Below, in pieces: positions 18,273 through 57,385 of a stretch of 64,000 nucleotides of DNA. Where the stretch lies: the NCBI GenBank assembly GCA_963735035.1, contig CAVTJJ010000004.1:320001-384000 (forward strand), in the 5' to 3' direction. This DNA is from an uncultured candidate division Zixibacteria bacterium (GTDB taxonomy: Bacteria; Zixibacteria; MSB-5A5; GN15; FEB-12). The number at the start of each line of letters is the position of its first letter. Within the stretch, counting starts at the first letter, position 1. The notes beneath the pieces were generated by a model. It saw only the letters and a program-made list of their open reading frames with translations, had not been told where the DNA came from and ran no database searches. Position numbers and translations under genes: made by a program.

Positions 18273-18331
18273 AGCGAAAGCACTTTTGCAACATCCCCCG
18301 ACGGGTGGGAATTTGTACGTGTGAGGAAGAT

Positions 18332-18835
18332 ATGAAACGCAAAGTAACCCTTCGAGGCATTCTCATCGTTCTGGTCGTGTTGATTGTGGTCGCGCAGCTC
18401 GTACCGGTCACGCGGGACAATCCGCCGATCCAGTCCGATTTCAACGACAACGCCGCGGTGAAGCAGGTGCTGAAGAAGTCCTGCTATGATTGCCATTCCA
18501 ACGAGTCGGTTTGGCCCTGGTATAGCTATGTCGCGCCGGTGTCGTGGCTGGTGGCGAGCGACGTTCATGAAGCGCGCCAGAAGATCAATTTCTCCAACTG
18601 GGGTCTGATGCCGGCGACGAAACAAAAGCTCGCCCCGCAAAATATGCTGGATGAAATCGACGAAGGCGGCATGCCGCTGCCTATATACCTGATCATGCAT
18701 TCCAACGCCAAGCTGACCGACGCCGATAAGGCGACCATTCGCGCCTGGGTGGAAGGTGGTACGTCAAGCGACACAACCGGCAGTACGACAGGCGACACGA
18801 CCAAACCGGTCGAGCCGGAAGAAGAGAGCGAGTAG
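18332..18835 (+). CDS. Monoheme cytochrome c (Haem_bd domain)
   Basis: SCYDCHSN, WPWYS.VAP.SW, NFS.W, MP..Y..MH; GAGGA RBS. Confidence 0.9.
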   Translation: MKRKVTLRGILIVLVVLIVVAQLVPVTRDNPPIQSDFNDNAAVKQVLKKSCYDCHSNESVWPWYSYVAPVSWLVASDVHEARQKINFSNWGLMPATKQKLAPQNMLDEIDEGGMPLPIYLIMHSNAKLTDADKATIRAWVEGGTSSDTTGSTTGDTTKPVEPEEESE

Positions 18836-18879
18836 TCGGTTTGGGTGGCCCACCCGCTGCTATGTACTGTGTCAAGGGC

Positions 18880-19070
18880 TTTCTGTTCAGGCATAGGACT
18901 CGAACCAGTCTGCTATTCGTGGTCGCTGACTGGCAGCGCCACAGGCAATGTATCCGCTCGTGACCTGGCGAGGCAGCAGACTTGCGGACGTGGTCTCGGT
19001 TGGCCCGAGCCACAGCGGGTGGGTCGCTGTTCTCGCGTTAGCTTGGTACGGTTCCGACTCCTTGGTTATC
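18880..19070 (-). ncRNA. Predicted bridge/seek RNA of the IS110 element
   Basis: Non-coding region 3' of tnp; two stem-loops with internal loops matching target and donor junction; ends approximate. Confidence 0.75.
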
Positions 19071-20129
19071 TTAGGCGGCCGCACACGGCTCATAGGCAAC
19101 GTTATCAAGCAGAACCCGCCTGACTGCCAAGACCAGTCGTCGAGCTACCGCCACTATGGCTCGTTTGCCGCCGGCACGTTGCTTGATCCGGTTATAGACC
19201 AGTTGTAAGTGTGGGTCCTTCCGAACGGCAATCCAGGACGATTCCACTAACAAGCCCCGAAGATAGCTGTTGCCCGTGCCGGTAATCCGACCCATCCGGA
19301 CATGATCACCGCTGGAATACTGCGAAGGTGTCAGTCCCACATAAGCCGCCAATTGCTCAGCCCGTCCAAAACGACCGACCTCATGCAATTCCAACAGCAG
19401 AGCCATCGCCGTAATAACCCCTATGCCGGGAACGCTACTTAACAGCCGAACTCGATCACGATACTGTGGCAGTCGTGACAACTCCCGCAACAGTCGTGTC
19501 TGCAACGCCAGCTGGTTACTTACCAGATCGTACATCTCCAACAACCGCTCGTAGCTCGCCTGAGCCCAGACATCTGCCAAACACACCTGTCTCAGACGCT
19601 CTAATAACGGACCGGTCCACCGACCCGTCCCACTGCACACTGAAATACCATATAAGGCCAACTCCGATTTGATCCGACTCTGAAGACGTACCCGATCTTG
19701 AACCAATTGACGACGACGACGTAAGACCTCTCGGTGACCCCGCTGACTCTCATCCGGAACCCAGACCTTCTTCAACAACCCTAACGACAGCAACCAGGCC
19801 AGCTTCCGGCTATCCCGCTTGTCCGTCTTCACCCGATTACCGTAGGCCATCGGCACCAAGCTCGGCGGCGTTACTACGCACTGACCACCCCACGCTACCA
19901 CACAGTCGTGCAGCCAAAAACCAGAAAAACCCGCCTCGTAAACCACGGACACACACCCAGGATCATACCGATCCAGCAAACACCGCAAAGACGCCCAATC
20001 CCCGTTAATGCTGCCACAGAACAGTTCCACTTCTAACGTCCTCACCGTGACAAACCACTGACGCTTGTGAACATCCACGCCAACAAAAACAGCACTTCCC
20101 ACTTCCGCTCCAACTTCGTACCTTCTCAT
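19071..20129 (-). CDS. IS110-family transposase/recombinase
   Basis: DEDD RuvC-like domain (GVD, YEA, KTDKRD); C-terminal SVPGIG...F...QLAAYVGLTP..YSSG; AGGAGG RBS. Confidence 0.96.
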   Translation of the reverse strand: MRRYEVGAEVGSAVFVGVDVHKRQWFVTVRTLEVELFCGSINGDWASLRCLLDRYDPGCVSVVYEAGFSGFWLHDCVVAWGGQCVVTPPSLVPMAYGNRVKTDKRDSRKLAWLLSLGLLKKVWVPDESQRGHREVLRRRRQLVQDRVRLQSRIKSELALYGISVCSGTGRWTGPLLERLRQVCLADVWAQASYERLLEMYDLVSNQLALQTRLLRELSRLPQYRDRVRLLSSVPGIGVITAMALLLELHEVGRFGRAEQLAAYVGLTPSQYSSGDHVRMGRITGTGNSYLRGLLVESSWIAVRKDPHLQLVYNRIKQRAGGKRAIVAVARRLVLAVRRVLLDNVAYEPCAAA

Positions 20130-20351
20130 CTGAGCCTCCTGTTCTAAGGATCTATCGTTGTCTTCAGACCACGATACGATACCTTGTCCGAACAGAGGCT
20201 CAAATCACGAACAGTATCATAGTTACTTGCGGGTGGGATTGTGTCGTGCGCCGAGGGTGGATTCAATCTCTGATCGGCAGGGTTCCATCCCTGCCGGTTC
20301 TTGTATCGGCCGGTTCGGTGCCCCAGCGCTTGCGCTGGGCTTGAAGAACTC

Positions 20352-20380
20352 TTGACGCAATCTGATTGTTGGGCTATTAT
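20352..20380 (+). promoter_or_regulatory. Putative sigma70 promoter
   Basis: TTGACG-N17-TATTAT upstream of the ORF at 20480. Confidence 0.5.
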
Positions 20381-20479
20381 TCCATCATGCGAATTTGGTG
20401 TGCGGGGCTTTGTCACGAAGACCATAAACTCACCTGCAAGCAGGTGAGCGACTTGGACAAAGAATTGTGCGGTGGCAAT

Positions 20480-21421
20480 ATGAGACATTGTGTGATGAGT
20501 CTTGTCGTGTGTTTCGTGGCGCTATGGGTAGTCTTGGCTTCGAAAGTGCTCAGCAGTGATGAGATCGGTAGTTTGGACATACGTTCCATACCTGGCAATG
20601 ATGATTATGGGTTGGCATCTGCGCACACGACTCCGGATGGCAAGCAGTTTGTATATTATCTTTGCGTTCGTGGCGGTAGCGACACGGTTGAGTATACTCG
20701 TGTGATTGACTCTATAATGTCCTGTGTCCCAATCAAACCGTCCGATTCGCTTGACCTCAGCTATCTCGCCTGCAAGAGTGACAGTGTCATTCTATTGGCC
20801 CTCGATATCCTTAAGCCGCATGTCCGGGATACACTGCTCACGCTGTTCTTTCCCGATTGCTCGATTGGAAAGATCAACACGTACTTCTTTTCCAGAAGAG
20901 AAGCATTGCTTGGGCTGAGCGGTCTTCTTCCTGACTCCACTGGTGAGCCATGGCATGTCATTATTGGCAGGATTACATCGCGGGATAGCATGGACACAAT
21001 CGCTTATGTTTCAGGGGGTAATTCCGTCACACTTTCAAGTGATGGCACCGAGGTGTTTCTCAACCGCTTCACCAAATTCGCTCCCAACACTATACCTACC
21101 ATTTCTACGGCCGTGTACGATCTCGTGGCCGATTCGCTCTTGGATCCGCTGAGCAAAGCAACAAACACTAGTGGCGCTTTTCGGTTAGCGCGTGAACTCC
21201 CGCTATACTACCTGAGAGCTGATCCGGTGTCCGGGACCAACGTATGGAGGTGGGATGCCATCAGGGGAGAAGAGCAGGTATCTCATTTCTTGTTACCCCA
21301 ATGGGTGACACGCTTCAATCTAACTAAGGATTCGGTTCTGTGTGTTGTTGTGGACCAATCCCATAAGACTGCTGGCGAACTAATTGTGTCTATCCCGCTG
21401 GAAGCTTCTGGTATCAAGTAG
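20480..21421 (+). CDS. Hypothetical secreted, beta-rich protein
   Basis: Signal-like N-terminus; less GC-biased codon usage than neighbours; no recognised family. Confidence 0.65.
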   Translation: MRHCVMSLVVCFVALWVVLASKVLSSDEIGSLDIRSIPGNDDYGLASAHTTPDGKQFVYYLCVRGGSDTVEYTRVIDSIMSCVPIKPSDSLDLSYLACKSDSVILLALDILKPHVRDTLLTLFFPDCSIGKINTYFFSRREALLGLSGLLPDSTGEPWHVIIGRITSRDSMDTIAYVSGGNSVTLSSDGTEVFLNRFTKFAPNTIPTISTAVYDLVADSLLDPLSKATNTSGAFRLARELPLYYLRADPVSGTNVWRWDAIRGEEQVSHFLLPQWVTRFNLTKDSVLCVVVDQSHKTAGELIVSIPLEASGIK

Positions 21422-21477: not shown

Positions 21478-21630
21478 CGGCAGGCCCGGAGGCCTGCCGA
21501 CTCTTGCATCTACTCTGCGAGCGAACCCACAGCAAGCTGTGGGGTACCCATACATAAAAGCGCCGTCAGGCAGAGACGCCTGACGGCACGGTTACTTACA
21601 TGGGGCAGACCAGGAGGTCTGCCGCCCACA
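21478..21630. repeat. Cluster of four different REP-like hairpins
   Basis: CGGCAGGCCCGGAGGCCTGCCG, CCCACAGCAAGCTGTGGG, GTCAGGCAGAGACGCCTGAC and GGCAGACCAGGAGGTCTGCC, each recurring elsewhere in the window. Confidence 0.85.
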
Positions 21631-53037: not shown

Positions 53038-53390
53038 GGGTACCCCACAGCTTGCTGTGGGATCGACCGCTAATGCTGTCTTACCCCGCTTTAGGCGGGG
53101 CACCCAAGGGTTGTTTGTTATGTGCCCGGCAGATGCCCACATCTGCCGGCTCGTACCTCTAACGGTCTATGTCTGTCTTGCCCCGCTTCAGGCGGGGCAC
53201 CCATGAATGCGAGCGACAAGTCCGCACGTTTTCCCCTTGCGTCACACAGCGGCGTAAGTTATTCTACCTAACAGGAGACAGCATCCCCTGTATCTTGAGG
53301 GTTCCGGCACGACACCACGTTAATTGTATTCGGCAGGGTTCCATTCCTGCCGGACGGTCGAAAGGGGTAGCCCACAGCTTGCTGTGGGTT
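53038..53390. repeat. Dense REP cluster
   Basis: Two CCCACAGCTTGCTGTGGG, two CCCCGCTT.AGGCGGGG, one GGCAGATGCCCACATCTGCC and one CGGCAGGGTTCC..CCTGCCG. Confidence 0.85.
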
Positions 53391-56954: not shown

Positions 56955-57385
56955 TGGTGGACGAGGACGTCCATCACGCACGACGGGTGGGATTCTTATG
57001 CCAACGGCCGAAAGGCCGTCACCCCCGAGGCGTCGGGGGCCCAGTCAAGTTCGCTGTGAAGAGATAGTAGACATCAGGAAAGATGCTCGAAACAATTCTC
57101 TTATTGAAAACTCGCTCTTGTGAACATCCATCTTGACTGGGTTCCTGCCTTCGCAGGAATGACAGGACTCGCGTCCTGTTTCAGAGTCGATCAACCCACA
57201 GCAAGCTGTGGGATACCAGGTACGAGTCGGCAGATGTGGGCTCGCCGCGGCGGACCGGGCACTTTGCACATCAAGCGGCGGGCCGGGCACTCTTCATGAG
57301 CGGGCCACACAACTGTCTTGCCCCGCTTCAGGCGGGGCACCCACTGGCCTTCAACCCCCAGTCAGGCAGAGACGCCTGACCGCAC
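56955..57385. repeat. REP cluster
   Basis: TGGACGAGGACGTCCA, TTCCTGCCTTCGCAGGAATGAC, CCCACAGCAAGCTGTGGG, CCCCGCTTCAGGCGGGG and GTCAGGCAGAGACGCCTGAC. Confidence 0.8.

Follow-up and report, generated by a model that had tools for sequence, protein, structure and literature searches.

An IS1111-type IS110 element with a predicted bridge RNA downstream of its recombinase gene

The window, as the whole 64,000-nt stretch of DNA analysed here is called, carries on its minus strand an IS110-family element of the IS1111 type at positions 18857-20225 (1369 bp with one core copy). It is in all probability an active or recently active member of this group, whose 3' non-coding region would encode a bridge (seek) RNA of ~166 nt. 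This interpretation is built from the computed borders, target and core, the recombinase family and its motifs, a conserved RNA fold, and covariation between guides and flanks. A preliminary description of this DNA had read the element as an RNA-guided IS110/IS1111 recombinase, and matches of the protein to NF033542 and to Pfam models, the IS1111 layout, the order of the guides and a fold kept in seven relatives all agree with that reading. The system had also been called new; it is so as an undescribed orthologue, but the kind of system was already known, having been described in 2024.

The element, its borders and its target

The genome to which the window belongs comprises 3.6 Mb in 6 contigs and contains five full copies of the element, with 100% identity over ~1.4 kb. 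The stretch common to these copies defines the insertion sequence, with its body at 18859-20225 and one core copy at 18857-18858 (minus strand). All five occupy the same 20-nt site in the same host hairpin repeat, and in each the adjoining flanks read CCCACCCGCAAG| and |CGGGTGGGCCACC in the tnp sense, with unrelated sequence further out and five different outer flanks on both sides. Their frames are open, extending over 357-377 codons from stop to stop. The earlier judgement that the element is probably intact fits the five 100%-identical copies, the open frame and the catalytic motifs described below.

A partial sixth copy is present at a contig end of the same genome (L006 1500-2189). On its left flank it is similar to copy L003 apart from substitutions and small indels, some of them in the target half-site. 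It is either a diverged duplicate or one locus that the assembly contains twice with errors; the independent insertions are counted as five. The several differences in that flank suggest some assembly redundancy or error, and would suit the explanation that the element has a bridge-type RNA and a recombinase and is no longer mobile, its copies being duplications or assembly repeats. The runs in which the stretch occurs include no RNA run, and contigs from four DNA runs gave only short internal pieces of the element, some of them 95-99% alike, with no joints, circles, loose ends or bridges across empty sites. The lack of circle and empty-site reads also suits an immobile element. Against this explanation, the outer flanks of the five full copies differ from one another on both sides, their frames are intact and they show no differences over ~1.4 kb; contigs of other metagenome runs also contain variants that are 95-99% alike. 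We consider loss of mobility exceedingly improbable, and treat the element as active or recently active.

In the tnp sense, the left half of the target is CCCACCCGCA, followed by the core AG (20226..20237, with the core at 20227-20226), and is identical in all five full copies, the sequence differing further upstream. Equally invariant in the five copies is the right half CGGGTGGG (18856-18849) together with the host-repeat tail CCACC(C) that follows it (18843..18856 for both). Uninterrupted host repeats read CCCACCCGCAAGCGGGTGGG, and since only AG is shared by both element junctions, the core is AG in the tnp sense and CT on the plus strand of the window, not the TG(C) of the preliminary description. 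The target is accordingly CCCACCCGCA-AG-CGGGTGGG, and comparison with the uninterrupted repeats shows that insertion occurred without duplication beyond the shared core dinucleotide AG. The CCACC tail is also present after uninterrupted host repeats and is therefore part of the host repeat, which accounts for the longer conservation seen on the right flank than on the left.

Insertion takes place in the GCAA loop of a REP-like hairpin repeat belonging to the family CCCAC-N-GCAAGC-N-GTGGG followed by CCACC, and further examples lie in the window at 21526-21543, 53044-53061, 53371-53388 and 57195-57212. A first reconstruction of the target, CCCACCCGCGGGTGGG with a GC core, was rejected, as it matched only 2 places at 2 mismatches, equal to its reversed control; adding two loop bases to it led to the real site. 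The pattern CCCACCCGCAAGCGGGTGGG was searched because the relatives and flanks had revealed the host hairpin repeat CCCACAGC-AA-GCTGTGGG. Allowing up to 3 mismatches in the element's own genome, it gave 18 forward and 24 reverse matches, versus 0 and 0 for the reversed pattern used as control. Uninterrupted exact copies of the target number zero, and 8 places differ from it by one mismatch (none for the reversed control); the preferred repeat variant is thus occupied wherever it exists as an exact copy in this genome (5/5, with 0 empty). In seven of the 8 empty one-mismatch sites the mismatch falls in the right half, which is read by the long guide, and in the remaining one it falls in the core. 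Other variants of the repeat are abundant, with CCCACAGCAAGCTGTGGG present in 40 exact copies and CCCACCTGCAAGCAGGTGGG at more than 10 places in the same genome.

We also considered a REP-associated Y1 transposase tied to the host repeat. There are 6 Y1_Tnp matches in the genome, and the repeat was found within 1.5 kb at only one of the four Y1_Tnp loci examined; the association is unsupported, and for this reason the target is termed 'REP-like'. A plus-strand ORF of 176 aa with a CxxCH motif (SCYDCH; window 18305-18835) ends 8 nt before the hairpin-repeat target, such that the element sits just downstream of that gene.

The ends of the element carry sub-terminal inverted repeats. The left one, CTATGATACTGT (20211..20222, minus strand), lies 3 nt inside the core and is the reverse complement of 18860-18870 plus one extra A; the right one, ACAGTACATAG (18860..18870, minus strand), lies 1 nt inside the core. 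They match at 11 of 11 positions with one extra base; a gapless repeat search did not return the pair. Between the stop codon of tnp and the right end lie 212 nt of non-coding sequence (19070-18859), and the left end measures 96 nt (20225-20130). Sub-terminal inverted repeats together with a long non-coding region 3' of tnp constitute the IS1111 layout (PMC11187229; PMC11208160).

The recombinase and its predicted control signals

The tnp gene (19071..20129, minus strand) encodes a DEDD/Ser recombinase of 352 aa. It contains the Pfam domains PF01548 (E 1.4e-12; N-terminal DEDD, RuvC-like) and PF02371 (E 2.4e-25; C-terminal Transposase_20), and it scores 226.7 bits, relative to a cut-off of 140, with NF033542, the NCBI equivalog model 'IS110 family RNA-guided transposase'. 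The DEDD/Ser motifs are located at GVDVH (D19), YEAG (E65), KTDKRD (D103 and D106) and GLTPSQYSSG (S273). The C-terminal domain aligns to the transposases of IS621 and ISCro4 (E 1.5e-11 for IS621, about 1e-11 overall), with the Ser-Gly of GLTPSQYSSG in register with YESG of both, and KTDKRD falls opposite KTDTVD in a weak, non-significant N-terminal alignment only. The D, E, D, D and Ser positions matched in tnp correspond to what we take to be the catalytic residues of IS621. Residues 178-270 (window 19320-19598) additionally give a sub-threshold match to the NCBIfam TIGR-Tas RNA-guided endonuclease model (E 2.5e-4; 21 bits, cut-off 100).

Upstream of tnp, a predicted leader hairpin at 20130..20205 (minus strand), with arms GAGCCUCUGUUC … GAACAGGAGGCUC, would pair the Shine-Dalgarno sequence and the AUG of tnp. 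It folds with -40.7 kcal/mol and a z of -5.22, with 0 of 200 shuffles as stable, and its arms are kept upstream of tnp in the relatives. The two halves of a predicted promoter lie at opposite ends of the element, with the -35 half TTGACA at 18870..18875 and the -10 half TATGAT at 20216..20221 (both on the minus strand), 17 nt apart across the joined ends. When the ends are joined over one core, TTGACA-N17-TATGAT is formed in 7 of the 7 elements for which both ends are available. A scan of the linear element for promoters and terminators found no promoter-like and no terminator-like site. A promoter at the circle junction and a leader hairpin over the ribosome-binding site are usual in such elements.

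The predicted RNA and its guide segments

The predicted bridge/seek RNA spans 18896..19061 on the minus strand (~166 nt), as judged from an alignment of 8 sequences from which its approximate ends were also derived. A long-range stem, P0, closes it by pairing 19061-19050 with 18906-18896 (82.9% of cells paired; 3 of 10 pairs changed on both sides). The target-binding module occupies 18968..19036 and consists, by RNAalifold, of an outer stem P1, an internal loop and an inner hairpin P2; P1 pairs 19036-19025 with 18978-18968 (8 of 11 pairs compensatory, 94.3% of cells paired), and P2 extends from 19014 to 18989 inside the module. The inner hairpin of the donor module, P3, lies at 18918..18943 and reads UGUGGCGCUG..CAGCG-A-CCACG, with compensatory changes in 5 of 9 pairs and 98.6% of cells paired. 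The strings quoted in the preliminary description were all recovered from the minus strand where it had placed them, namely the outer stem GCGAG..CAGC / GCUG..CUCGC, CCCACCCGCUG (19023-19013), CCGCA, AUAGCA, the hairpins UGGCUCGG..CCGAGACCA and GUGGCGCUG..CAGCGACCAC, and UACAUUGC.

Applied to the 8 sequences, RNAalifold returned P1 and the inner hairpins P2 and P3, with 13 of 25 pairs compensatory. Adding the long-range P0 gives a structure of 36 pairs in which 92.7% of cells are paired, versus 36-45% when it is slid by 1-3 columns. In this structure 16 of the 36 pairs are changed on both sides. Neither its pairing nor its covariation was equalled in any of 500 shuffles, although with only eight related sequences the shuffle counts overstate the case and the slid controls are the fairer comparison. 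Folding of the window sequence by itself gave a z of -0.81 for 18855-19075 (38 of 200 shuffles fold as well) and of -2.47 for 18893-19061 (3 of 200). Support for the predicted structure comes from the relatives, the single-sequence energy being unremarkable.

Both modules follow one plan: the complement of the right half followed by CUG, then a hairpin UGUGGC…purine bulge…CCACG, then N, the left half, AG and N. The bulged A that had been reported in both inner hairpins is present, and the relatives have either A or G at this place. For the donor guides, the fold provides a multiloop in place of a closed internal loop. In the contigs of another metagenome run, a copy otherwise 95-99% similar has T>C (plus strand) at window 18931, in the loop of the donor-module hairpin. 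An Rfam 15 scan of 18500-20600 (E <= 1) gave only a sub-threshold match to Acido-Lenti-1, on the other strand at 20322-20342 and outside the element.

Four guide segments can be assigned within this fold. The 5' target guide, CCCACCCGCU(G) at 19013..19023 (minus strand), is the exact 11-nt reverse complement of the right junction and would pair with AG-CGGGTGGG in the tnp sense, that is, with the core and the right half (CCCACCCG-CU-G in the common plan); its last UG also forms the base of P2. The equality of this 11-mer with the insertion-site flank, as first described, is confirmed in that 18849-18859 and 19013-19023 form an 11-nt inverted repeat with 100% complementarity. The 3' target guide, CCGCAAG(U) at 18980..18987 (minus strand), equals the left half and core of the target, plus the first base of the element (CCGCA-AG-U), and would pair with the opposite strand. 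The preliminary description had recognized CCGCA as this second target segment, and the match proves to be longer, an 8-mer CCGCAAGT at 18987-18980 that equals the left junction. At the same place the relatives read UCAGCAAGU, their own flanks being CACAGCAAG|T.

In the donor module, the 3' guide AUAGCAG (18910..18916, minus strand) equals the right end ATAGC plus the core (AUAGC-AG). It extends the AUAGCA match to the right end noted earlier to a 7-mer, ATAGCAG (18916-18910), and all 8 sequences share AATAGCAGA without variation. In distant clades with a right end of CATAGAAG, ATAGAAG stands at this place, and the donor guide thus follows the right end between clades. The candidate 5' donor guide, UUGC(C)UG at 18942..18948 (minus strand), is the weakest of the four; it may pair with C-AG-TAA of the circle junction, that is, with the core and left end (UUGC(C)-UG), in ~6 pairs with one bulged C and one G:T wobble, and the relatives read UUAC(C)UG. 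We propose it in place of the donor pairing of UACAUUGC with TACTTGC (one extra nt), which is not kept: it uses two host-flank bases, and the relatives read CUUACCUG or AUUACCUG.

The matches of the 11-mer, the 8-mer CCGCAAGT and the 7-mer ATAGCAG sit exactly on the strands that flank the two inner hairpins. Every pairing takes in the core, where the two target pairings overlap, and the match to the top strand lies 5' of the match to the bottom strand. Because the target is nearly palindromic, the matches of the 5' guide to the left and right flanks are one observation and not two. When the non-coding region 19070-18890 was compared on either strand with two 30-nt junction windows, an exact match of at least 11 nt arose in 8 of 2000 dinucleotide-preserving shuffles. 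A more speculative idea is that two terminal bases, the G ending the 5' guide and the U ending the 3' guide, serve to pair with the recombination product; these one-nucleotide extensions fit the window clade and L033, and not L027 (G opposite A).

A conserved structure directly after the stop codon might instead serve the tnp messenger, in its stability, termination or translational control, and have no part in DNA targeting. The linear element has no promoter-like site for a separate transcript, and the leader hairpin over the ribosome-binding site suggests that it relies on RNA structure for control at another place as well. A terminator-like site is, however, equally absent from the linear element, and a stability element needs no loop sequences that follow the insertion site and the element ends. 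Origin in a 3' UTR is in any case compatible with a processed guide RNA, in that IS1111 seekRNAs derive from the downstream non-coding region (PMC11187229). A role confined to the messenger therefore appears extremely unlikely.

For the guide RNA that we favour, expression, processing, protein binding, circle formation and catalysis would follow the published work on IS621 and IS1111 elements. By analogy with these, the element would leave as a circle with its right and left ends joined over one AG/CT core, and the TTGACA-N17-TATGAT of the circle junction would drive tnp and the downstream RNA. The RNA would bind the DEDD/Ser recombinase through its two similar hairpins (UGUGGC..purine bulge..CCACG). 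On either side of the first hairpin, the RNA strands would pair with both strands of CCCACCCGCA-AG-CGGGTGGG, overlapping at the core, those flanking the second would pair with the circle junction ...ATAGC-AG-TAAC..., and the recombinase would exchange strands at the core.

Relatives, known systems and the host repeat

Scanned against one genome per species, the protein matched 55 loci, none above 45% identity, which were used for the comparison of distant clades only. Among 160 genomes searched from the same order, 8 besides that of the window had a match at E <= 1e-40, and seven loci, L065-L071, encode recombinases 50-66% identical to that of the window. The 3' non-coding regions of all 7 align with that of the window. 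Six of them (L065 and L067-L071), as far as their ends lie on the contig, share the ends AAG|TAACTATG and CATAGCAG|, the left end being AAG|T(A/C)ACTATG…; all the relatives are MAG contigs, and since most show a single copy their borders rest on the shared end sequences.

The preliminary description had expected guides to covary with the targets of homologous elements, and the target guides do change with the relatives' own flanks. We compared the 8 nt upstream of CUG in each RNA with the 8 nt of right flank after CAG. The window guide fits its own flank at 8/8, L067 at 7/8, L069 at 7 plus 1 wobble, L071 at 6 plus 2 wobbles, and L070 at 6/8, whereas L065 fits at 3/8, reaching 7/8 only when 3 nt, a repeated CAG at its junction, are left out. 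The fit to the own right flank is therefore 6-8 of 8 in five of the six elements, as compared with 0-5 for the window guide on foreign flanks. The left half (5 nt) fits at 4 plus a wobble in the window, at 4/5 in L067 and L068, and at 2-3/5 in L065, L069, L070 and L071; the 3' target guide (5 nt plus core) discriminates weakly, the L066 guide fitting four foreign flanks at 4/5. The variant to which L067 and L068 are tuned, CCCACAGCAAGCTGTGGGG, has 40 exact copies in the window genome, where the window element leaves them unused. L065 has the closest recombinase (66%) and reads CAGCAG at its right junction where the others read CAG, its flanks fitting its guides less well; this may reflect an older insertion or one into a non-cognate variant of the repeat.

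The distant clades (35-39% aa identity) have the same layout, order and spacing. At corresponding places L012 has TATTCGCGAGAC and L027 has TAACCTAGAC, in both cases identical to the element's own left junction, and L033 carries GCCGCATTCTT, the reverse complement of its own right junction. An Acidobacteriota family (L035-L050) was set aside as evidence, having only a 7-mer match (ACCGCAG) to the right flank and undefined borders.

These comparisons bear on the explanation that the matches between tail and flanks are captured remnants of the host repeat, or chance, and that the protein or the shape of the target hairpin picks the site. The target does belong to an abundant repeat family, with 40 exact copies of the sister variant and many near-copies of the target itself, and a GC-rich, low-complexity 11-mer arises in 8 of the 2000 shuffles. 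The tail nonetheless has no partner arm able to form a repeat hairpin, and the matching segments are single strands beside conserved hairpins. At these positions, moreover, relatives and distant clades have segments that have changed to fit unrelated, non-palindromic flanks (CAG|ACCCAGC, TATTCGCG|AGAC and AAG|AATGCGGC). We therefore regard remnants or chance as very unlikely. Natural retargeting among the relatives suggests that the guide RNA may be reprogrammable.

The closest described systems are the IS1111 elements with seekRNAs and IS621. IS1111-family elements with a seekRNA include ISEc11, ISKpn4, ISPa11 and ISPst6 (Siddiquee et al. 2024, PMC11187229). The group is characterized in that source by sub-terminal inverted repeats of 7-17 bp, a longer non-coding region downstream of tnp and a recombinase of 330-350 aa, and in its seekRNAs the top-strand match lies 5' of the bottom-strand match, the two overlapping in the target. 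By this description (PMC11187229) the window element is alike in guide order and IS1111 layout; it differs from the four named elements in its host lineage, its target and its recombinase of 352 aa versus 330-350.

Likeness to IS621 (structures 8WT6-8WT9) extends to a DEDD + Ser recombinase, two guide modules for target and donor, and the inclusion of the core in every pairing, as is described for IS621 by Durrant et al. 2024 (PMC11208160). When the window element is read on the strand opposite tnp, its core is CT as in IS621, and a long left guide that includes CT is followed by a short right guide. In contrast, the IS621 RNA lies 5' of tnp in the left end, whereas that of the window lies 3' of tnp with the guide order relative to tnp reversed. 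The guides of the window element have 8 nt plus core and 5 nt plus core, versus 7 plus core and about 2 plus core in IS621. The IS621 modules are two simple internal loops, whereas in the window element a long-range stem closes the multiloop that holds the donor guides; the same account by Durrant et al. (PMC11208160) mentions donor guides in a multiloop, and not a closed internal loop, for many IS1111 orthologues.

RNA-guided IS110/IS1111 recombinases are under development as programmable DNA-insertion tools. The window element leaves the known mechanism unchanged and provides a fully legible natural example in which borders, core, target and four guide segments are assigned, and the relatives form a ready series with differing target guides on the same scaffold. 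The genome-wide census of occupied and unoccupied near-cognate sites may be useful for the choice of orthologues and for questions of specificity.

The location in a repeated extragenic palindrome also has parallels. IS110-family elements that insert into REP sequences were reportedly described by Tobes and Pareja in 2006, a study cited in PMC11208160. ISPpu9 (PMC12288879) is an IS110-family element that inserts into REP sequences and has the Ssr9 RNA downstream; the window element resembles it in occupying such a palindrome and in having a small RNA gene, here predicted, downstream of tnp. It differs from ISPpu9 and the REP-inserting IS110 elements, as these are described there, in that the exact copies of the preferred variant in its genome are all occupied and that sister elements are tuned to other variants. 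It is possible, if somewhat doubtful, that the sister elements of one bacterial order keep donor module and scaffold and rewrite only their target guides, each following a different host-repeat variant, with near single-mismatch discrimination in vivo. If true, this would point to a continuing contest: mutated repeat variants evade the element, which then catches up through changes in its guides.
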